52,407 nt of DNA from a virus. The number at the start of each line of letters is the position of its first letter. Positions within the stretch are counted from its first letter, which is position 1. The notes below the pieces were generated by a model. It ran no database searches. It was not told the origin of the DNA and saw only the letters and a list, made by a program, of their open reading frames with translations. Both the position numbers and the translations under genes were made by a program. The stretch is from the UHGV virus genome UHGV-0113213. One strand, given 5' to 3'. Shown here one piece after another: positions 5,593 through 50,973 of the stretch.

Positions 5593-6123
5593 TTAACTTA
5601 CAACGTCTAAGGCGTCTTTATTGTTTGTTGTGTCTATGCCTAACGATCCGACGTTTGAACCTACTTTCATTTCTCCTAATAGGATTGGCACTGGTCTACC
5701 CTGTCCTACCCTGTTTTCTATGCTGGTGTAAGTGTTATTAGTTATGGTGTTATCCTGCGCGCTTTCTGATGATGTTTTTACCTTCATGTTGCGAGACATA
5801 AAAATAGAAAAAGCGACGCTGACAACTGATATACCAATCATAATCCAGCCAATCACACCAATACCTGCAATACCACCTTCAACTATTGGCGCAATAATTA
5901 CCGTAGTTCCATCTGGATATTTGCTATTAACAGCCGCTGGCGCGGTCTTTTCGTTGTAATCTTTCCCGGCAATTCGTAAGCGCAAAGGTGTATTTAAAAA
6001 CGCCTTTTTAAATTCCTGATTCTGCGCGGTCAATAAGCGAAGCCCTTGCGCTGGCGTTTCAACGTTTAAACACACTTTGCTGTAATATCTTCGAAGATTG
6101 CCCGTAAATCTAAATTTGAGCAT
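5593..6123 (-). CDS. I: Tail assembly protein I
   Basis: 176 aa with C-terminal hydrophobic Gly-rich segment and conserved end (ILLGEMKVGSNV) like lambda I; between K and J. Confidence 0.75.
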   Translation of the reverse strand: MLKFRFTGNLRRYYSKVCLNVETPAQGLRLLTAQNQEFKKAFLNTPLRLRIAGKDYNEKTAPAAVNSKYPDGTTVIIAPIVEGGIAGIGVIGWIMIGISVVSVAFSIFMSRNMKVKTSSESAQDNTITNNTYTSIENRVGQGRPVPILLGEMKVGSNVGSLGIDTTNNKDALDVVS

Positions 6124-6797
6124 TTATCAGATCTCCATATTGAATGCGTTTGTCGAACATAAGCAGGCCGCATTTGCTCGCGGCGGCTTAATAATCCGGC
6201 ATGGTCATGATGCAAAACCGTGTTATCACCCAGGTAAATCATTGCGTGACACGGGTCAGCGCCTTTGAATGGCTGGCGAATGATCACATCACCAGGCTGT
6301 ATGCTTTGCGCATCAACCTGATAAAACCCGTTCAATGGCAGGTTTTTTAAATACAGGTTTTCACCGCGAAGCCACCAGCCATCAAGGCGCTCGAAGTCAG
6401 GCAGATCTACACCGCAAAGGTGATATGCGTCGCGGAAAAGCGCGTAACAGTCTGTCGTTCCGTGTACGAATTTACGGCCTAGCAGGTGCGCAACCGGACG
6501 GAATTTCCTGATCTTGCCGCCGGAATATAAAAACCAGGGTAGCCCGGAAATAACCTGTTGCTGTCGATCCCGCGCTGACAATACAGGAATATCACCAACG
6601 TGGGAGTGGAAAACGGCGGTTATAACGCCCAATTCGTCCGCCTTGATGTAATCGTCCGGCGAAATCTTGAAGCTGTTGTAAGGCGTTTCAGACACGTTAG
6701 CGCACGGGTAAAAATACTCGTTATCTATTACAAGTCCGCAAACTTCCTCAAACGGATGCGCGGCGGCATAACGCGACATTTTGTCTTCCATCCCCAT
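6066..6797 (-). CDS. K: Tail assembly protein K (MPN/JAMM plus NlpC/P60-like domains)
   Basis: Motifs HSHVGD (JAMM-like) and Cys-containing NlpC/P60-like C-terminus; start moved to ATG at 6795-6797, 2 nt after L stop; overlaps I start as in lambda. Confidence 0.8.
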   Translation of the reverse strand: MGMEDKMSRYAAAHPFEEVCGLVIDNEYFYPCANVSETPYNSFKISPDDYIKADELGVITAVFHSHVGDIPVLSARDRQQQVISGLPWFLYSGGKIRKFRPVAHLLGRKFVHGTTDCYALFRDAYHLCGVDLPDFERLDGWWLRGENLYLKNLPLNGFYQVDAQSIQPGDVIIRQPFKGADPCHAMIYLGDNTVLHHDHAGLLSRREQMRPAYVRQTHSIWRSDKCSNLDLRAIFEDITAKCV

Positions 6798-12266: not shown

Positions 12267-12926
12267 ATGAAACGGTTAGCAAAAGTGGCAATGATTGCGG
12301 CGGTATTGGGTCTGGTTGGTTGCAATGAGGATAATGAAAAAGCGCCTATAGTGACCAATCAAGAGCAACAAGCATTAGTAGAGAAAAATGCTAAATGGCT
12401 TGCAGAACAACAAGCAAAACAAGCCGCATACGATGCACAGTTAGAAAAAGAAAATGCTGGTAAACAGTGGCTTGTAGTTGAAAGAAAAGATGATATGCAG
12501 GACGCAAAAAACGTATTCCTTTTTGTGAAAGCAGAACAATTCAGCGGAAGTCTTGATGCTTTCCCGACACTGAAGGCACAGGATAAGAATAAACCGGTAT
12601 TAACAATCGCTTGCCAGGGTAATAAAACAAAAATGTTCGTAGCATGGTCACACCATGTAACTGACGCCGGGGACACTACTTATATTAACTACCGGATCGG
12701 CGTTCACAAAGCTGTAGCTACTGAGTGGTGGCGGTCAACTAATTATAAAGCTCTTGGATTATGGGACGGCAAAAAAGCCATCCCAATGATTAAAAAACTG
12801 GTTAACGAAAAACAATTCATCATTGAAGTAGTGCCGGAAGCTGGCGACATTGAGAAAGCAGTGTTTAACATTGATGGTCTTTATAACCACATCGACAAAG
12901 TGAAAAACGCTTGCAACTGGAATTAA
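12267..12926 (+). CDS. Lipoprotein (219 aa), moron between H and tail chaperone
   Basis: Signal peptide with lipobox LVGC (MKRLAKVAMIAAVLGLVGCNE); opposite strand to structural operon. Confidence 0.7.
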   Translation: MKRLAKVAMIAAVLGLVGCNEDNEKAPIVTNQEQQALVEKNAKWLAEQQAKQAAYDAQLEKENAGKQWLVVERKDDMQDAKNVFLFVKAEQFSGSLDAFPTLKAQDKNKPVLTIACQGNKTKMFVAWSHHVTDAGDTTYINYRIGVHKAVATEWWRSTNYKALGLWDGKKAIPMIKKLVNEKQFIIEVVPEAGDIEKAVFNIDGLYNHIDKVKNACNWN

Positions 12927-19145: not shown

Positions 19146-20077
19146 TCTTCGCCATATTTAGCGTGCGCAACTTTATAGTTTTCTTGCGCCCGATCTAATA
19201 TTCGTTCGTTTAATATGTTACCGTCTTCGTCAACTAATACGGTAATCGTGCTACATTTGCAGTTAATTGAATTAGGGGATCTACTCCACCATTCGCGCTG
19301 CTCATCTATGGTGTATGTTTTACCGTGCCGCTGCGCGTGCGATAGCCTGGTAGTCGGTGATAATGCCGAAATGTGCATTTGCATAGTGCGCAGATTAAAT
19401 TCTTCTGTCGCCGCTTCTGCCTCATCCATACGCGCTGTGCGTAACGCTGTGCATATTTCAGTTCGAGCAATACGTTTACACCTGTATAGCGGTAATTGCG
19501 TCTCCTGATTCAATGTGCGCGCTATTTCCAGTGGGTTTAAACCACGGGCCATGCCTTCAGTTAATCGCCGGGCCATATCCTTTTTGATCTGTGCGGTCAG
19601 CCCGCGCATTTCCTCAAATACACGGGTACGGACCAGAGCAAGGCGTGTTCGGTAAGTTGTACTGGATAACACGGCAGATACATCGGGATAAACGCTTGAG
19701 TACGTGACAGACTGGTTAGCAAGGTTGGCGTATTCCTGTGCCGTGCCTCGCAGATACGCGACCTTCACGTATTCCTGCCAGAACCAAAAACTTTCCGGGT
19801 CGGTTAGCTCGAATATCTCATCAATCATGTCGCTGGCGTCCTCCAGCATGTCGTGCAATTCATCCATGTAAATCTGGAAGGTATATTTCTTATTAACAGC
19901 CAGGCTATATTGTATTTTGTCCAGTATGGCGATATATGGATCGGCTACTTTTTTCAGGCAGGATTTGAAACGCTTAATAGCGCCAGACCTCAACCTCCCT
20001 GTCATGGTCGGGTCTTCGGTGTTAGATGGCATTATCGCGGCTGGAGGTATTCGCCTGATTATTTTCTTCACCTTCAT
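19136..20077 (-). CDS. Head morphogenesis protein (SPP1 gp7 / Mu F-like minor head protein)
   Basis: 313 aa directly downstream of portal; start codon uncertain (alternatives at 20032, 20005). Confidence 0.6.
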   Translation of the reverse strand: MKVKKIIRRIPPAAIMPSNTEDPTMTGRLRSGAIKRFKSCLKKVADPYIAILDKIQYSLAVNKKYTFQIYMDELHDMLEDASDMIDEIFELTDPESFWFWQEYVKVAYLRGTAQEYANLANQSVTYSSVYPDVSAVLSSTTYRTRLALVRTRVFEEMRGLTAQIKKDMARRLTEGMARGLNPLEIARTLNQETQLPLYRCKRIARTEICTALRTARMDEAEAATEEFNLRTMQMHISALSPTTRLSHAQRHGKTYTIDEQREWWSRSPNSINCKCSTITVLVDEDGNILNERILDRAQENYKVAHAKYGEDWE

Positions 20078-21395
20078 TGTCGTTTTCCTCGTCGTCCAGT
20101 TCTACTTCCTGCGTTGGCCCTTCATACCCGGCAGCCTCGCGGATCTCGTCACCGTCGAATACTTGTTCACCTGTGGCGAGACATGCCTGATTGATTTGCG
20201 CCATTTTGTATGCCGCGTCGAGTAGCTCGGCTTTCGTCATGGCGTTAAGGTCGTCCCACAGTACCGACACGTCGACTGGCATACTGATAAGGCGGAGATC
20301 TGCCATCTTGCGGAATAGTTCCTCAAGCTCGCCTCCTATTTCCTCCCGGCGGGTCATACAGCGGTTATTGAAGTAGCGGAGGTCTTCGGTTGATGCACGC
20401 TCACCCTGCTGATTCCCAACCAGGATACGCGTTGGAATGTCGATACCAGCGGCGGCGGTTTGCAGGTTGACGTCATAGGTAGCTGATGGATCCGCCACGG
20501 CAGTAACCAGCGGGCTAACGGTAGCTCCCTGTAATGCCATCATCACATCATTCCCTTTGTTTATATCCTCTGCCGCTTCATTGAATTTTTCGCGCAGCTC
20601 TGTAACGTCGCAACCGTATGTCGCAGCCAGGGAACGGAAATCAATCTCTTTGTCGAATGAGATAGCTAGTTGACGCGCTGCGTTTTTCAGAAAGGATTCA
20701 CCGCTACCGCCTTCCACTTTCTCCAGCGATACAAAAGCGTTATAGGACGGCTCAAGGAAAGCGATGGCATCATCAGAATAATCACCGAAGATAAATATGC
20801 GATCTGGATGTATCTTTCTTGCTATGGTCTTACTGTTAATGCGCTCCTTGTATTCCCACCATGTCGGCAGGCCATAGCTTTCACTTTCCGGATCTTCTTC
20901 GAAGTCCTTCGGTGTAAGAGCACCAGCCCATACAGGGGTAAATTTGGCAATGCCTACACCTTTCGTCACTGGCTGATCCCACGGCTGGTTATCCCTGACG
21001 TGAATTAACAGGCCAGCATAACGACCAATGAGGCGGCGGCGATCGCATTCAGCTATGACGCGCCAGAAACGATTATCAAATCGTTTTTTGATTTCTCTTT
21101 CCCACGGCGTTTCCTTTTTTGCTTTCTCGTCTTCCGTACCTTCGATCAGCGTTGGCCTGGTGCGCCAGCACGTAGTGATGATCTTCTCAATAGCACCGTG
21201 AGCGATACCACCGCGACGATACAGTTTGTATAAATCGGCATAGGTGATTTCTTCTTTGAATCCGTATTCACTCCACGCAGCATCACGCTTTGCATCAATA
21301 CCCATTGAGAAAGGATGCGCGGCGGCATAGCGTGCAAAGGCCGCCTGACGTTGTGACAAGGCAGCATTAACCGCCAATTCTAAATTGGATGGCAT
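20022..21395 (-). CDS. Portal protein
   Basis: ~457 aa downstream of TerL; start moved to ATG at 21393-21395 (AGGAG RBS 7 nt upstream). Confidence 0.75.
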   Translation of the reverse strand: MPSNLELAVNAALSQRQAAFARYAAAHPFSMGIDAKRDAAWSEYGFKEEITYADLYKLYRRGGIAHGAIEKIITTCWRTRPTLIEGTEDEKAKKETPWEREIKKRFDNRFWRVIAECDRRRLIGRYAGLLIHVRDNQPWDQPVTKGVGIAKFTPVWAGALTPKDFEEDPESESYGLPTWWEYKERINSKTIARKIHPDRIFIFGDYSDDAIAFLEPSYNAFVSLEKVEGGSGESFLKNAARQLAISFDKEIDFRSLAATYGCDVTELREKFNEAAEDINKGNDVMMALQGATVSPLVTAVADPSATYDVNLQTAAAGIDIPTRILVGNQQGERASTEDLRYFNNRCMTRREEIGGELEELFRKMADLRLISMPVDVSVLWDDLNAMTKAELLDAAYKMAQINQACLATGEQVFDGDEIREAAGYEGPTQEVELDDEENDNEGEENNQANTSSRDNAI

Positions 21396-21417
21396 AATGT
21401 TTACTCCTGAATGCATG

Positions 21418-34864: not shown

Positions 34865-34960
34865 TTTGTTTGCTTGAAGTATACAAAATGGATACCCCCA
34901 AACAAGGCAAAAAGCGCCATTATGTGATCCGCATCACGCAATGATGCCATTTTGTAAACT

Positions 34961-35725
34961 TTAGTCCGGTAAAATGCGGTTAAGCGTAGTACGAGTGATG
35001 GCCCGGTCGTTAGCCAGGAATACAGCACGGGCAAAGCCGCGCGGCGTTAGTGAGCGGATCATCTTAGTGCGTTTCGACTCTCCTCCTAACTTCGCGTGCT
35101 GTTTGCTGTCTTCCCATTCATCCGGCATAGGTACAGGCCGGAATAGCGGCTGCTTAAATCCATTCCCGCACCAGATACAAGTTTTCTTCGTGTATGCGTC
35201 GCGGGCAGCTATGTATTCAGGGAAAGCAGGGTGTTTGTCGTCTTCAGGCAGGTAGCCACCGTAAGCGCACGGGTTGAAGATAAAATCAGGTTTGCGCCAT
35301 AACGTTGACAGCGCACCTACCGGATTTTCCACCATCCACGGGACGTGGTACATATCAGCAAGCGTTTCTACCAGTTTTGCGTTGTATACCGCCTTCTGCT
35401 GGAAGTAAGGTTCTTTTTTCCGCTTATCAGCAAACCAGCGAGCGCCGGACACCGCAAGATCGTCGCACGGAGGAAAGCCCAGGATAATGTCAGGATCTGG
35501 ATAAACAGACAATTCAGGGGAGAACATTACCAGGAAATGGCTGTCAATCCATACGTTGATATACTCAATGTTCGGATGAATGATTTTGACGCCTTCATAA
35601 TCGCCGTGATTAGCGCCATCATAGTTGAAGCAATAGCATTTATAACCAGCGTCGGCCCAATCTTTAACGGCGTATCCGCTGCCGTCGTACAGCGACCACA
35701 CCACCCAATTTCTAAGCCCACTCAT
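34961..35725 (-). CDS. C5-cytosine DNA methyltransferase-like protein (divergent, 254 aa)
   Basis: Motif I-like LYDGSGYA, catalytic PC-like GFPPCDDLAVSG, ENV-like ENPVGA. Confidence 0.5.
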   Translation of the reverse strand: MSGLRNWVVWSLYDGSGYAVKDWADAGYKCYCFNYDGANHGDYEGVKIIHPNIEYINVWIDSHFLVMFSPELSVYPDPDIILGFPPCDDLAVSGARWFADKRKKEPYFQQKAVYNAKLVETLADMYHVPWMVENPVGALSTLWRKPDFIFNPCAYGGYLPEDDKHPAFPEYIAARDAYTKKTCIWCGNGFKQPLFRPVPMPDEWEDSKQHAKLGGESKRTKMIRSLTPRGFARAVFLANDRAITRTTLNRILPD

Positions 35726-36225
35726 TTCCTACCCTCGAACGTAAAGTAGCGGCGCATGATGATAGTGATCACCGTTACCGCCGCCATTTTTGAGATGAAT
35801 TGCATAGCTGATATTTCCGGCATGAATGCCATAAACGATAGCGTTGGGAAAATTAACGCATCGCCAATGGCGGACGCTATATTTGCAGGCCAGCGTTTAG
35901 AATCGAAATCACCAGGTAAAACCCGGTAAACGCCGCCAGAAATAAGCGCACCGGAAACAACCGCGACGAATGACGCGATCGCCACCATTCCGGCGTCGTA
36001 ATTTATCAGCACCGTGATTGCGCCAGCGGCGGCGCATGTTGTAGCCGACCATTTAAGGCCGCCGTCATATAACAGAAAATCACGAATCATCATATTGACA
36101 CACACGGCGGCTACCGTGGTGATCGGAATTACCCACGGGCCACAGTGGTTAACAATAAGATTGATGATAACGAAAACGGCGACATAAACGCAGGCTAATA
36201 ACCTGTCAATTGCCACCATCTTCAT
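35722..36225 (-). CDS. Integral membrane protein (167 aa, 4-5 TM helices); weak resemblance to YhhQ/VUT transporter family
   Basis: Hydrophobic profile by eye; family assignment tentative. Confidence 0.45.
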   Translation of the reverse strand: MKMVAIDRLLACVYVAVFVIINLIVNHCGPWVIPITTVAAVCVNMMIRDFLLYDGGLKWSATTCAAAGAITVLINYDAGMVAIASFVAVVSGALISGGVYRVLPGDFDSKRWPANIASAIGDALIFPTLSFMAFMPEISAMQFISKMAAVTVITIIMRRYFTFEGRK

Positions 36226-36400
36226 TTAGCTCTTCCTCCCGATACGCTAATATCTGTTCGGCCTTAAGCGCGTTATAAGCAATAAGGTCTATAAGAGTGT
36301 CGAGCGGATCAGTTCCATTAGCGAGAATAGCCCCTAAACGCGCTTCCTTGAGGCAAATCATTAGATCCCATACATCAAGTGGGGTTAAATTCGCATTCAT
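36206..36400 (-). CDS. Hypothetical protein (64 aa)
   Basis: ORF in operon. Confidence 0.35.
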   Translation of the reverse strand: MNANLTPLDVWDLMICLKEARLGAILANGTDPLDTLIDLIAYNALKAEQILAYREEELNEDGGN

Positions 36401-36517
36401 CTTAGCGTTGAAAATAGCCGCTATTTTTGGCGCTGATTTTTCTTCTTTTCGATCGTATCCGTTTTGCTCCCTCTTGCCTCGATAGTTTCAGCCGCAAGTC
36501 TCAGCAATTCAGCCGCT

Positions 36518-37057
36518 TTATTCATTTTCTGCACCTCTTGCATATAGCTCTTTACGTGTTATCTGCGTGAAAATACATTCATGTCTGCATCGTGGATGCC
36601 AGATCAGGAACAAGCTCCCCTTATTGTTCCCGCTTACTGGTTTCCCTGTTGCAGCATTGATAAACGCCAGCCGCCCGCGCGTGATTAATCGGCATTCGTT
36701 TGCCGTCTCCACGCCGTTCATAAACCAGCTAACAGAAATGTCAGCGGGCAATAACATTACGCATCCGATATGATTTCGGCTGTGTTCAAGCGCCGCTTTA
36801 TCAACGAATGGCCCCGGATTAGAATATGGCGGATTCATCCAGACATACTCACCAGGCATCGCCACCGCTCCCCACGGATAATGGAGCGTGTCCATTTCTT
36901 CGGTTATATATCGCGGTATTAATGCGTTTGCCTTGTTTGCCGCCACATCCGCGACGAACTCGAATTCTCGATCCATTCCTCTAAAAACGGGTTTTGGCGT
37001 TTGCCATAAGTCCTTTATTTCTTTCGGCGTATGGCTGCCGCCGTAATCATTTTTCAT
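36518..37057 (-). CDS. Phage-type DNA N6-adenine methyltransferase
   Basis: Motif WMNPPYS (NPPY catalytic motif), size ~180 aa typical of phage Dam family. Confidence 0.75.
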   Translation of the reverse strand: MKNDYGGSHTPKEIKDLWQTPKPVFRGMDREFEFVADVAANKANALIPRYITEEMDTLHYPWGAVAMPGEYVWMNPPYSNPGPFVDKAALEHSRNHIGCVMLLPADISVSWFMNGVETANECRLITRGRLAFINAATGKPVSGNNKGSLFLIWHPRCRHECIFTQITRKELYARGAENE

Positions 37058-38344: not shown

Positions 38345-38965
38345 TTAATGCAGTACACGTTTTTCCTGTTCATGAATAGGCTGTGCACTTTTCATTGCTT
38401 CGTTAAGCGTAGCTATAGCCGCCTGTACGCCGAATTCATTAGCGCGCATATCATCGCCAACAAATTTTCCGTAAAGCACCGGAATAAACGCCTTAACGTT
38501 CACTTCTTCGTGTCCTTCCTCAATAAATTTCTGCAACATCTTAACCTCAAAGACCTTTTTCATCAGGCCGCGCATAGAATGCAGTGAAACACTGCCAAGC
38601 AGATCCTTGTTCAACGGGAAAATAACAGCACTTCCGAACGCGAGCGGATCAACATCTTCCGGCACTGGTGCGCGTCCGAATTCCTCCTCCATGCGTCTTA
38701 CGAAAGTGAGGCAGAACACATAACGCGCTACCGATGTTTTTTCTTCCATGCTTAAAGACACGTAATCGCGGATTGATGCATTCATCATAATATCGACAAT
38801 CTGTAGCGCCAGATTTAAGTCACTGTCATACACTCCTGCTTCCATATCTTTTAAAACTTCGTGATAATCCTTAGTTACCACTTCGTGAAAGCTCGCGTCC
38901 TCTGTGTAGCGAGTAATTAACATGCCTTCGCTGCCGAGTGAATAAGCCGTTTTGATATTGTTCAT
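38345..38965 (-). CDS. Hypothetical protein (~206 aa)
   Basis: Start moved to MNNIKTAYS with AAGGG RBS. Confidence 0.45.
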   Translation of the reverse strand: MNNIKTAYSLGSEGMLITRYTEDASFHEVVTKDYHEVLKDMEAGVYDSDLNLALQIVDIMMNASIRDYVSLSMEEKTSVARYVFCLTFVRRMEEEFGRAPVPEDVDPLAFGSAVIFPLNKDLLGSVSLHSMRGLMKKVFEVKMLQKFIEEGHEEVNVKAFIPVLYGKFVGDDMRANEFGVQAAIATLNEAMKSAQPIHEQEKRVLH

Positions 38966-38976
38966 AATATTTACCC

Positions 38977-39309
38977 TTATAGTGGATGATGCCATTTCAT
39001 TTCAGTTTCTGAATTAAACGGGTTTCCTTCGCTTGAAAGGAATAAATCACGCTCCCGTTTCAGTTCTTCCGGGCTTATTTCTATTTCATCAATCTGACCG
39101 AACGATCCAGGCATCATCCGTTTTAAATCGGATAGCGGACGCATAAGGCCGCAGCCACGTAACAGCATGTCTATAGCGAATTGTCTACGCCCTGCTGCAT
39201 CATTAAAGCGACGCGCCCACGGGACACACACAATCCGGCGTTCGAACTCAATAAATAGTGATAGCTTGTTAGTCTGACTATCATAGGCCTTATGTAATTT
39301 AATTTTCAT
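38977..39309 (-). CDS. Hypothetical protein (110 aa)
   Basis: ORF in operon. Confidence 0.45.
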   Translation of the reverse strand: MKIKLHKAYDSQTNKLSLFIEFERRIVCVPWARRFNDAAGRRQFAIDMLLRGCGLMRPLSDLKRMMPGSFGQIDEIEISPEELKRERDLFLSSEGNPFNSETEMKWHHPL

Positions 39310-45147: not shown

Positions 45148-46071
45148 ATGCGCAAGTTAACACATGATGAACAGGTTGCGGCTATCGCTAAGGTTAATCA
45201 TGATGTCGAAGTGCTTGGGGAAATTGTCAATAACAGGACAAAAGTATCCTGCCGCTGCAAGGTTTGCAGTCACGAATGGTCGGCTAGACCTTACAATCTT
45301 AAAAGCGGTTACGGCTGCCCGAAATGCGCCGGAAAGATGAAATTATCACACGAAGAACAGGTTGCCGCTATCGAGAAGGTTAATTCTGATGTCGAAGTGA
45401 TTGGCGAAATAATAAACGGCGATACAAAAGCATTATGCCGCTGCAAAGTTTGTAATCACGAATGGTCGGCTAAACCTAACAACCTAAAAAACGGGCGCGG
45501 CTGCCCGAAATGTAAAGGTTTAAAAATCGCACAAAGACGAACATTATCACACGAAGAACATTTATCCGCTATCACTAAGGTAAATCATGATATTGAAGTA
45601 TTGGGAGAAATAATAAACGATAGGACAAAAGTATTATGTCGATGCAAGGTTTGTGATCATAAGTGGTCGCCTAGACCTTATGCTATTAAAAGCGGGCAAG
45701 GCTGCCCGAAATGTGCGAAACACGGTTTTTTGTCACACAATTTCGGCAAACTTTACATCATGGTTGATGATCCTGAAGTGCCTACACAAATGAAAATCGG
45801 CGTAAGCGTTAATGAGAACAAGCGAAGAAATCGGGTATTAAAAAGCGCACATAAATCAGGCGTTAGAATCCCTGATTTATGTGTCGTGAAAACGTTAGAA
45901 GGTCCAACCGAAAATATCCATGAATTAGAAAGCACGATGCATAAATATTTCAGCAATTATAAAATTAACTTTCCTGTAAAATTTGATGGCAGTAATGAGT
46001 TTTTCTATTACAGGCCGGAAGTATTCGACATGGTAGAAGAAGCATATAAAGAGATTGTTTGCTGTCAATGA
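45148..46071 (+). CDS. Protein with three tandem ~58-aa zinc-ribbon repeats and C-terminal T5orf172/GIY-YIG-like domain (307 aa)
   Basis: Repeat HEEQVAAI.KVN.DVEV.GEI.N..TK..CRCKVC.HEWSA.P.NLK.G.GCPKC three times; C-terminal GKLYIMVDD...KIGVSVNENKRRNRV. Confidence 0.55.
   Translation: MRKLTHDEQVAAIAKVNHDVEVLGEIVNNRTKVSCRCKVCSHEWSARPYNLKSGYGCPKCAGKMKLSHEEQVAAIEKVNSDVEVIGEIINGDTKALCRCKVCNHEWSAKPNNLKNGRGCPKCKGLKIAQRRTLSHEEHLSAITKVNHDIEVLGEIINDRTKVLCRCKVCDHKWSPRPYAIKSGQGCPKCAKHGFLSHNFGKLYIMVDDPEVPTQMKIGVSVNENKRRNRVLKSAHKSGVRIPDLCVVKTLEGPTENIHELESTMHKYFSNYKINFPVKFDGSNEFFYYRPEVFDMVEEAYKEIVCCQ
45157..45690. repeat. Three tandem ~175-bp DNA repeats (about 80 percent identical) encoding the zinc-ribbon modules
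   Basis: Direct comparison of the three units beginning CACGAAGAACAGGTTGC. Confidence 0.7.
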
Positions 46072-50325: not shown

Positions 50326-50973
50326 ATGAATAAACTTAAAGCAATTGGCGTAATTCGCCATCGTGTAGACCCGGACTACCCTTCTTTTGAGGTTGCCACA
50401 TACCGCAACGAATACCAATATGGATCATCTTTCCTTGTGGGTGTTCGCGCTGATACTGGCGGCACTTATTCAGTTATGGCGGCTTCATGTGTTTTTGAAG
50501 AATATAAAAATATAGATGATGACGGCATGAATAAAGAAAGTGAAATCATTGATGAATTAATCGAAGATGAGCGGCATGATTGCGATAAACCGGAAGTTAC
50601 AGAATGGAAGGCAGGAGAAAAGCCGCCGTGCGGAGTGTGGCTTGATTGCATTGGATCAAGAAGCGATATAGTGATTGATGTCGTTAAGTTTTTCTACCTG
50701 GGCGATAAGTGGTCTATTGCTCACAGTAAATTAGATACAGGTATTGAAACACCAATTGCATGGAAACAATACTCGTACCGCATTCACATTGACCCGAAAG
50801 AAAAAGCACTGGCGGAAATTGCGTTTGCGCTGGCTACTAAGGTGATTGGTGAAGATGCGGCAAAAGAAATTAATTTTAACCGCGACAACGAATTTTCATG
50901 CGATTATCGCAACATGGCGCAAGCTATTATCGACGGATGTATCGGACACGTTGAATACACGGGAGGTAAATAA
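50326..50973 (+). CDS. Hypothetical protein (215 aa)
   Basis: ORF in operon. Confidence 0.45.
   Translation: MNKLKAIGVIRHRVDPDYPSFEVATYRNEYQYGSSFLVGVRADTGGTYSVMAASCVFEEYKNIDDDGMNKESEIIDELIEDERHDCDKPEVTEWKAGEKPPCGVWLDCIGSRSDIVIDVVKFFYLGDKWSIAHSKLDTGIETPIAWKQYSYRIHIDPKEKALAEIAFALATKVIGEDAAKEINFNRDNEFSCDYRNMAQAIIDGCIGHVEYTGGK

Follow-up and report, generated by a model that had tools for sequence, protein, structure and literature searches.

K42 Dcm (KarlJaspers strain) is reported to make 5-methylcytosine at CCWGG and to trigger retron Ec86; the modified base was detected by LC-MS of msDNA, with a quadruple mutant, C82A/E128A/K175A/K176A (Dcm^mut), as the catalytically dead control (bioRxiv 10.1101/2023.08.16.553469). 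These experiments are cited as established in PMC12916289. YhhQ homologues from phages count as putative preQ0 transporters in the literature, and for phages that carry genes of the Q pathway without DpdA, a boost to the Q-tRNA of the host has been proposed (PMC6884629; PMC7544227). For phages of the mEp021 group, the genes considered here have been covered by annotation only, and nutR2 has been placed downstream of the methylase gene (PMC11893012).

The stretch of DNA analysed here, referred to as the window, comprises 52,407 nucleotides of the virus genome UHGV-0113213, and the gene block under study belongs to the delayed-early ('nin region') part of an mEpimmI-type (mEp021 group) E. coli prophage. 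The order of genes is Dam, DUF6378, a YhhQ/VUT-like membrane protein, a Dcm-like C5-methyltransferase and a hairpin or putative terminator, followed by ninF, ninG, rusA and Q (Table 1). All ORFs of the block lie on the minus strand, at the coordinates that an initial annotation had assigned to them. The hairpin is located directly 3' of the methylase stop and closes the four-gene block ahead of ninF/ninG, and an annotated terminator of mEp021 occupies the equivalent position. The ORFs of 167 and 254 aa overlap by 4 nt (ATGA), the synteny of the block is conserved in the relative L049 at 52-64% identity, and dN/dS values indicate purifying selection on Dam, the transporter gene and the methylase alike. 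ORF positions and family matches bear out the view of a YhhQ/VUT-family membrane protein encoded between two DNA methyltransferase genes; the three genes of the cluster as first proposed all stand, but a fourth, the DUF6378 gene between Dam and the membrane protein, had been overlooked. The block is probably best explained as an independent Dam and C5-methyltransferase, together with a VUT homologue without DpdA, in the mEpimmI nin operon.

Table 1. Features of the gene block and their positions in the window
Feature	Coordinates	Strand	Basis
Phage Dam-type N6-adenine DNA methyltransferase, 179 aa	36518..37057	-	PF05869, TIGR01712, phrog_111
DUF6378 gene, frameshifted in the window	36206..36525	-	ORF list, Pfam, alignment with prophages
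Divergent YhhQ/VUT-family (COG1738) polytopic membrane protein, 167 aa	35722..36225	-	phrog_4899, profiles, AF2
Compact Dcm-like C5-cytosine DNA methyltransferase, 254 aa	34961..35725	-	phrog_757, homologues, fold
Short hairpin GCATCATTGCGTGATGC, candidate terminator	34931..34947	not assigned	terminator-like scan

The 179-aa protein matches Pfam PF05869 (E 1.9e-51, 174.5 bits), the TIGR01712 equivalog (140.9 bits against a cut-off of 97.05) and phrog_111. The NPPY motif is readable in its translation as WMNPPYS, which together with the two matches above cut-offs confirms the phage Dam that had been recognized from the letters, and its dN/dS relative to mEp021 is 0.053. The neighbouring DUF6378 gene (Pfam match E 2e-4) is intact in relatives at 106 aa and is annotated as one CDS in NZ_CP116035. 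In the window it is split into a 40-aa ORF (36421..36543) and a 64-aa ORF (36206..36400), and alignment with two near-identical prophages identifies the frameshift as a 1-bp deletion in a G-run, GGGG to GGG, near 36471. A role for DUF6378 as a conserved transporter partner was considered and rejected, as the gene was found in none of the 80 DpdA-linked loci and in none of the P0133 loci.

The 254-aa protein matches phrog_757 (E 3.6e-87) and has 2322 detected homologues, and its family, present in 1515 of 50,697 phage records, is very common in phages. The C5-methyltransferase motifs attributed to it, SLYDGSGY, GFPPCDDLAVSG and MVENPVGAL, are all readable in the translation. At E<=1 no Pfam (including PF00145) or NCBIfam model matches it, and a precomputed PF00145 match exists for just 3 of its 120 listed homologues, supporting the view that the protein is C5-methyltransferase-like but too divergent for PF00145. 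Its AF2 model is confident (pLDDT 88.5, pTM 0.88), and the top 50 PDB matches of this model in Foldseek are all DNMT3A, DNMT3B, DNMT3C or DNMT1 (E 2e-7 to 2e-5). Single-sequence PDB searches returned only noise; a methylase profile reached DNMT3B among the PDB sequences at a sub-threshold E of 0.37, a hint that was given weight only after confirmation by the fold search. The protein is 60% identical to the KarlJaspers Dcm over 232 residues (E 2e-101), and the gene for K42 Dcm is equal in length to that of KarlJaspers. By family and fold, it is predicted to be an ordinary C5-cytosine methyltransferase and not an odd base-modifying enzyme.

At the level of individual motifs, LYDGSG (motif I, residues 12-17) aligns with LFDGIATG of DNMT3B, with G15 and S16 invariant and G17 nearly invariant in 33 homologues. 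In motif IV, P85-P86-C87 is invariant across the 33 aligned homologues and is followed by Asp, and in motif VI E133-N134-P135 is likewise invariant, with ENP replacing ENV. Inspection suggests W143-R144 as motif VIII, followed by an insert of ~70 residues, RSLTPRGFA (motif IX, R-x-L-T-x-R) and a terminal ..AN in which N239 is invariant; this assignment of motifs VIII, IX and X is a reading of the alignment together with the fold match rather than a residue-level superposition. The compact insert between motifs VIII and IX, at approximately residues 150-220, is a short candidate target-recognition domain (TRD), so the methylase probably does not lack a recognition region, and the earlier statement that none was obvious probably does not hold. 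PCD in place of PCQ in motif IV had been taken to suggest a non-canonical base-modifying enzyme, a reading that finds no support. The residue after the catalytic Cys is Thr in 113 of 120 close homologues and Asp in 5 of 120, which makes PCT the family norm and PCD a minor variant, and the 60%-identical family member is reported to form 5mC. Furthermore, human DNMT3B has PCN in motif IV, so Gln at the next position is not required. Within the sample, PCD is concentrated in VUT-linked loci, and it was considered as a signature of transporter-linked enzymes. This was rejected because the correlation comes from one clade and has exceptions of both kinds: a T1-like phage has PCD although neither the 375 bp of upstream contig nor the downstream genes include a transporter gene, and an mEp-like prophage carrying the transporter has PCT.

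Membership of the 167-aa protein in the YhhQ/VUT group had been regarded as faint and is now solid through intermediate sequences, profiles and an all-helical model. It matches phrog_4899 at E 2.7e-46, but it falls below the curated thresholds of Pfam and NCBIfam, with Vut_1 aligning residues 13-157 to model positions 6-149 of 152 at 12.3 bits (gathering 27.2, E 0.22). A word-indexed homologue search retrieved only 12 near relatives, while a profile built from its clade finds 259, and 68 of 72 tested relatives match Vut_1 at E<=1e-3; one intermediate is a fusion with QueF. With CAjan gp41, the preQ0-transporter homologue, BLASTP gave no match, a narrow profile gave a weak one (E 0.06), and hhalign with a broad profile gave a probability of 97.3% (E 2e-11). 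The AF2 model (pLDDT 93.7) contains five long helical segments, one of which is long enough for two spans, the mEp021 annotators gave six TM segments, and the best BFVD fold matches include a 'putative vitamin uptake transporter' at TM 0.52-0.62. On sequence evidence, the protein is a divergent YhhQ/VUT transporter homologue and a predicted carrier of a 7-deazaguanine precursor. With a dN/dS of 0.019, it is the most strongly conserved gene product of the block.

In other viral VUT loci, the usual partner of the transporter gene is DpdA. Using a profile made from the neighbour cluster, a DpdA-like gene was found to adjoin the VUT gene in 75 of 80 comparison loci, which are the best 80 of 541 and phylogenetically clustered; the cluster representative matches phrog_887 'queuine tRNA-ribosyltransferase' at E 4e-69. 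Opt-719 and PEAT2, both isolated phages, show the same adjacency, as do P0136 and P0137, the next-nearest relatives. The profile, which represents one DpdA subfamily and could be escaped by very divergent types, gave no match to window ORFs at E<=10, none at E<=0.01 in a near-identical 50-kb prophage region covering most of the window or in the 10-kb mEp021 locus around the cluster, and none at E<=1e-3 in 85 mEp-type viral loci. Among the other large ORFs of the window, no TGT or Que families emerged from Pfam and PHROG scans. Two ORFs of the window, of 216 aa (38345..38995) and 215 aa (50326..50973), were considered as hidden DpdA analogues, but neither the DpdA profile nor Pfam nor PHROG lent support to this. 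No DpdA was found nearby in the sister clade P0133 either. Viral, genome-contig and metagenome scans for the transporter returned either 96-100% identical copies or nothing, so the DpdA-less clade is not broadened beyond L049 and P0133. A transporter without detectable DpdA is a mild curiosity rather than a new modification system.

The membrane protein had been put forward as a partner of the methylase, and in its strongest form this idea describes a single module in which an imported base or cofactor is installed on DNA by the C5-methyltransferase-like enzyme as a non-canonical modification, possibly DpdA-independent 7-deazaguanine or hypermodified cytosine. The 4-nt gene overlap, the persistence of the adjacency in L049 at the identities given above, very strong purifying selection on a transporter without its usual DpdA partner, the concentration of PCD in VUT-linked loci of the sample and the DpdA-independent insertion routes left open by Hutinet et al. 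would all be compatible with such a module, which is nevertheless very unlikely. The two genes are adjacent in the mEpimmI lineage only: for a methylase family present in 1515 phage records, a VUT gene within 6 kb was found in 0 of 40 sampled non-mEp loci, and the methylase occurs in 2 of the 80 other VUT loci (again the best 80 of 541), whose usual neighbour is a DpdA-like gene. A functional pairing is therefore not supported. Moreover, PCD occurs without an adjacent VUT gene (on a short contig) and PCT with one, the VUT-linked loci form one clade, so that the correlation amounts to a single evolutionary event, and a 60%-identical member of the family is reported to make plain 5mC from SAM. 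That a translationally coupled transporter and Dcm-like enzyme install a modification other than 5mC in a DpdA-losing lineage is, accordingly, highly improbable, although the overlap with the methylase start and the dN/dS of 0.019 leave room for some operon-tied role of the transporter. Another proposal, by which the 254-aa protein would be the remnant of a methyltransferase and devoid of activity, draws on its lack of a match to PF00145 or any NCBIfam model, its place among the shortest C5-methyltransferase-like proteins and the label 'hypothetical' that PGAP often gives it. It is extremely unlikely, given that all 33 aligned homologues retain the catalytic Cys, ENP, KK (180/181) and the residues of motif IX without change, that RSLTxRG is present in 120 of 120, that dN/dS is 0.12, that the confident model has a DNMT3-like fold, and that a homologue of like length (236 aa) is active in vivo (bioRxiv 10.1101/2023.08.16.553469).

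A less improbable, though still doubtful, alternative is that the membrane protein has been re-purposed, either for another small molecule or as a membrane factor without a transport role, which might, for instance, serve exclusion or withhold precursor from rival phages with DpdA. The absence of DpdA from the phage, and from the vicinity of the gene in P0133, is in line with this, as is the strong selection, which implies that the protein does something. In the DpdA-less clade, several polar positions that do not vary among 60 DpdA-linked relatives have also changed (D44N, H52L, D96S, N36T, S114A), including two membrane-embedded Asp and a His, so the transporter may not carry preQ0 at all; the 60 comparison sequences are closely related, however, and their 'invariant' residues overstate the constraint. 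On the other side, the core residues of the family are retained (Y14, N22, R48-D49, N75, S85, N115, D122, Q142 and K146), the predicted fold matches viral VUT proteins, and a DpdA-free role for an importer exists, in that imported preQ0 can be used by E. coli for tRNA queuosine (PMC6884629).

Under the preferred explanation of independent genes, the two SAM-dependent enzymes would act separately to methylate replicating phage (and host) DNA, Dam at adenine N6 and the 254-aa enzyme at cytosine C5. In the latter, Cys87 would attack cytosine C6 and Glu133 of the ENP motif would protonate N3, with the methyl group landing on C5, and the insert of ~70 residues would read the target sequence, which is CCWGG for the K42/KarlJaspers homologue and may differ here. 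The probable benefit is protection from restriction, and a known cost of the methylase family is the triggering of retron Ec86. The membrane protein would be a homologue of the preQ0/preQ1 importers that feed the DpdA transglycosylase in other phages; with no DpdA, an imported 7-deazaguanine precursor could only enter the queuosine-tRNA pathway of the host, unless the substrate has shifted.

The two methyltransferase genes are of a routine anti-restriction kind in phages, and mEp021 already has annotations for both. For the 254-aa protein, there is now a link to a family studied by experiment, that of the compact phage Dcm which triggers retron Ec86; mEpimmI phages, whose prevalence in the human gut has been reported, are accordingly predicted to be sensed by this retron. 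Additionally, strong selection maintains the 'putative membrane protein' of mEpimmI phages, a YhhQ/VUT homologue, in the absence of DpdA, which offers a clean natural case for roles of phage preQ0-type transporters outside DNA modification, among which boosting host tRNA queuosine, a substrate shift and competition for precursor are candidates.

Among the known systems, the phage DpdA-YhhQ 7-deazaguanine DNA-modification modules (Hutinet et al. 2019; Pectobacterium phage PEAT2; Escherichia phage vB_EcoD_Opt-719) contain a transporter gene homologous to the 167-aa gene and occupy similar early/nin-type neighbourhoods with NinB, RusA and replication genes, and in the locus L086 DpdA, VUT, two small ORFs and a Dcm-like gene lie on a single strand. 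The present block is not such a module because the defining enzyme, DpdA, is missing. With the YhhQ/VUT (COG1738, PF02592) preQ0/preQ1 transporters, including CAjan gp41, the 167-aa protein shares the superfamily, the helical bundle and a length of ~160 aa typical in phages; it differs in being sub-threshold for Pfam, in its only weak direct match to CAjan gp41, in several clade-specific polar replacements and in the lack of DpdA or Que genes in the mEp021-group phage. The 179-aa protein shows no notable difference from the phage Dam family PF05869/TIGR01712 (T1- and VT-2-type), sharing a full-length match above curated cut-offs and NPPY.

The catalytic domains of DNMT3A and DNMT3B are the best structural matches of the methylase (Foldseek E ~2e-7, probability 1.00), with a C5-methyltransferase Rossmann fold and a small putative recognition region in common, a weak profile match over motifs I-IV and, in DNMT3B, the same lack of Gln after the catalytic Cys; identity is nevertheless just 13-19% and the TM-score 0.4-0.55, and the methylase has neither the DNMT3 regulatory domains nor a DNMT3L-type partner, with motif X apparently shrunk to the terminal ..AN. 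The Dcm of the Drexlerviridae phage KarlJaspers (Bas06)/K42, the trigger of retron Ec86 (Eco1), is of a similar length class (236 versus 254 aa) and shares the DNMT3-like predicted fold, and the C82/E128/K175/K176 of K42 Dcm correspond to C87/E133/K180/K181 of the 254-aa methylase. Motif IV is PCT in KarlJaspers Dcm and PCD here, and the putative recognition insert is IPPRATILPKEDDKDNPGWAK in the former and QPLFRPVPMPDEWEDSKQHAK in the latter, so the target of the 254-aa methylase may not be CCWGG. The genetic context differs as well, the KarlJaspers Dcm belonging to a virulent T1-like phage and the 254-aa methylase to the nin region of a temperate mEpimmI phage.

The window represents a prophage of E. 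coli that belongs to the mEpimmI (mEp021) group; PMC11893012 describes this group and does no more than annotate the genes of the block considered here. The 2.2-kb region with this block shares 84-90% identity with phages mEp010/013/021/044/515/554 and MagusPhagus, and 99.9% with a prophage of E. coli FAH. The minus strand carries all four block genes, with neighbours sharing a few to about 20 overlapping bases, including an ATGA overlap between the membrane gene and the 254-aa gene, downstream of which lie a hairpin, then ninF-like, ninG (PF05766), and rusA. The same gene order is found in mEp021, annotated as 'putative DNA N-6 adenine methyltransferase / hypothetical / putative membrane protein (6 TM) / putative DNA cytosine methyltransferase / terminator', and in the metagenomic relative L049 Dam is likewise followed by DUF6378, VUT, methylase, and NinG, at protein identities of 52-64%. 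The initial annotation, confirmed as an observation and with every quoted motif found in the translations, overlooked the DUF6378 gene, which is split in the window into 40-aa and 64-aa ORFs because of a 1-bp deletion near 36471 (36206..36543) in a G-run (GGG here, GGGG in two near-identical prophages of E. coli); this frameshift could reflect a true pseudogene or a homopolymer sequencing error.

Positions of the block genes, comparison loci, and other genes discussed
Feature	Sequence	Position	Strand	Basis or remark
Dam	window	36518..37057	-	ORF listing
DUF6378 gene	window	36206..36525	-	
167-aa membrane protein	window	35722..36225	-	ORF listing
254-aa protein	window	34961..35725	-	ORF listing
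DpdA-like and VUT pair	L078	5258..5995 and 6001..6468		example from within L054-L133
DpdA-like and VUT pair	L214	4989..6292		listed in addition to L054-L133
DpdA-like and VUT pair	L215	4004..5229		listed in addition to L054-L133
DpdA-like, VUT, two small ORFs, 208-aa phrog_757 methylase	L086	5258..7686	one strand	
YunG-like gene, P0133, two paralogous phrog_2510 proteins (unknown function), N6/N4 methyltransferase	L050	5362..8258		
VasI/TagO-like protein	window	12267..12926	+	PF11319, E 1e-15
Counterpart of 456-aa head-region protein	window	~20022..21416	-	by offset from L213 17726..19096
~215-aa ORF	window	38345..38995	-	phrog_1515, unknown function
Zinc-finger and T5orf172 protein	window	45148..46071	+	replication region
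~215-aa ORF	window	50326..50973	+	no match at all

The 254-aa protein matches no Pfam or NCBIfam model; it matches phrog_757 'DNA methyltransferase' (E 3.6e-87) and belongs to a family of 2322 proteins in a clustered database, detected by tblastn in 1515 of 50,697 phage records, with T1-like Drexlerviridae, rV5-like myoviruses, Klebsiella siphoviruses, and phiKO2 among the carriers. Across 33 aligned members (53-87% identity), G15, S16, P85-P86-C87, E133-N134-P135, W143-R144, K180, and R224-S225-L226-T227-x-R229-G230 are invariant, and from their sequence these blocks are read, in canonical order, as C5-MTase motifs I, IV, VI, a putative VIII, and IX. Between putative motif VIII and IX lies a variable stretch of some 70 residues, so that the putative recognition region, of which the initial annotation saw no obvious sign, is short rather than absent. 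The protein is modelled confidently by AlphaFold (pLDDT 88.5); the best 50 PDB matches of the model are without exception catalytic domains of DNMT3A/3B/3C or DNMT1 (E 2e-7 to 2e-5), and a family profile search of PDB sequences finds the same proteins weakly. Among 120 close homologues, the catalytic Cys is followed by Thr in 113 and by Asp in 5, the latter (PCD) being concentrated in the mEp clade, while DNMT3B has PCN in motif IV. Since PCD also occurs in a T1-like contig whose 375 upstream bp and downstream genes include no transporter gene, and the transporter of an mEp-like prophage adjoins a PCT methylase, PCD is a minor variant.

For the 167-aa membrane protein, Pfam Vut_1 gives only E 0.22 on its own, yet aligns end to end, and phrog_4899, to which PHROG assigns no function, also matches. 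A word-indexed search returned only 12 relatives, whose profile retrieved 259 proteins in an exhaustive search of 1.84 billion representatives; Vut_1 was matched by 68 of the 72 scanned individually, one of which also has a QueF domain. The broad profile aligns with CAjan gp41, a putative preQ0 transporter (probability 97.3%, E 2e-11), and the model is a helical bundle throughout (pLDDT 93.7), the only credible BFVD matches of which include 'putative vitamin uptake transporter'. Based on these relatives, the gp41 alignment, and the fold, the protein is a divergent member of the YhhQ/VUT family. Some VUT relatives (P0158, P0159, P0162, and others) are about 300 aa long and fused to an extra domain; a QueF-like domain is present in one of those sampled and DUF5020 in two.

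The neighbourhoods of both proteins were compared in two sets of 80 viral loci, one with distant relatives of VUT and the other with relatives of the methylase, the ORFs being searched with profiles built here. A VUT gene is present in all 39 mEp-type methylase loci; the profile search found none within 6 kb in the other 40 methylase loci (56-60% identity), and a methylase homologue occurs in just 2 of the 80 loci with VUT. A modification route shared by transporter and methylase is very improbable. Most VUT loci (75 of 80, as counted by a profile built from this neighbour cluster itself) have a protein of about 245 aa beside the transporter, usually immediately upstream; of the other five, three are cut by a contig end. 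Its representative matches no Pfam model and is DpdA-like on the basis of its match to phrog_887 'queuine tRNA-ribosyltransferase' (E 4e-69). The same adjacency occurs in the isolated phages vB_EcoD_Opt-719 and PEAT2 and beside the next-nearest relatives P0136 and P0137; the Escherichia phage vB_EcoD_Opt-719 gene is annotated only as 'hypothetical'. Phage YhhQ homologues are regarded as putative preQ0 importers serving DpdA, and deletion of CAjan yhhQ left DNA modification unchanged (PMC7544227; PMC6884629). The gene order in L086, a locus carrying both, indicates that DpdA/VUT and the Dcm-like methylase are separate modules sharing one neighbourhood by chance, an arrangement possibly ancestral to the mEpimmI block.

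A DpdA-like profile covering one DpdA subfamily gave no match at E<=10 in the window ORFs, and neither the near-identical prophage (50 kb searched), nor the 10 kb of mEp021 surrounding the cluster, nor any of 85 mEp-type viral loci yielded one. The remaining large or unannotated window ORFs, scanned with Pfam and PHROG, matched replication, recombination, regulatory, and unknown families, with no TGT/Que family among them. Relative to mEp021 (dS 0.42-0.71), the transporter has a dN/dS of 0.019, Dam 0.053, and the methylase 0.12; the low transporter value, together with the order kept in the relative, indicates at the sequence level that the transporter is functional without DpdA. Its nearest outgroup, P0133 (45% identity), likewise represents a sister clade with neither DpdA nor the Dcm-like methylase found nearby. 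Compared with 60 DpdA-linked sequences, the clade lacking DpdA (window, L049, P0133) retains Y14, N22, R48-D49, N75, S85, N115, D122, Q142, and K146 and shows the changes D44N, H52L, D96S, N36T, and S114A, which hint at an altered substrate or coupling, a hint weakened by the close interrelation of the 60 sequences.

Several other window genes were recorded. The T6SS-associated VasI/TagO-like gene, on the strand opposite to the surrounding tail block, looks like a moron. The protein with repeated CapR/DUF4379 treble-clef zinc fingers and a T5orf172 domain is encoded between a Lin1244-like initiator and a phrog_704-matching ORF preceding the helicase. The 456-aa protein of the near-identical prophage bears the PGAP name 'anti-CBASS protein Acb1 family protein', a name only and possibly an artefact. 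The two ~215-aa ORFs are the only sizeable unknowns remaining in the early regions.

Taken together, the block is best explained as one delayed-early operon with three independent accessory functions, namely methylation by Dam, C5 methylation of the Dcm type, and a YhhQ-type transporter, which has probably outlived its DpdA partner. The transporter could feed host tRNA queuosine, as Hutinet et al. suggested for DpdA-less phages, or else its substrate may have changed. The initial interpretation holds only in part: both methyltransferases are genuine, as is the resemblance to VUT, while the 'non-canonical enzyme' and the 'transporter partner' of the methylase are unsupported, the former also because a family member is reported to yield 5mC.

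That member comes from strain K42 of phage KarlJaspers; the KarlJaspers protein, a 'Dcm-like C5 cytosine methyltransferase' of 236 aa, is 60% identical to the 254-aa protein (E 2e-101). In K42, retron Ec86 escape mutants map to the Dcm gene, and Dcm expression produced 5mC in msDNA at a CCWGG site by LC-MS, the inactive control (Dcm^mut) being a quadruple C82A/E128A/K175A/K176A mutant (preprint, bioRxiv 10.1101/2023.08.16.553469); a later paper cites these findings as established (PMC12916289). The four mutated residues correspond to C87, E133, K180, and K181, and the 254-aa protein is an ordinary member of the compact phage Dcm family and probably active; its putative recognition insert is unlike that of KarlJaspers, so that it may recognise a site other than CCWGG.
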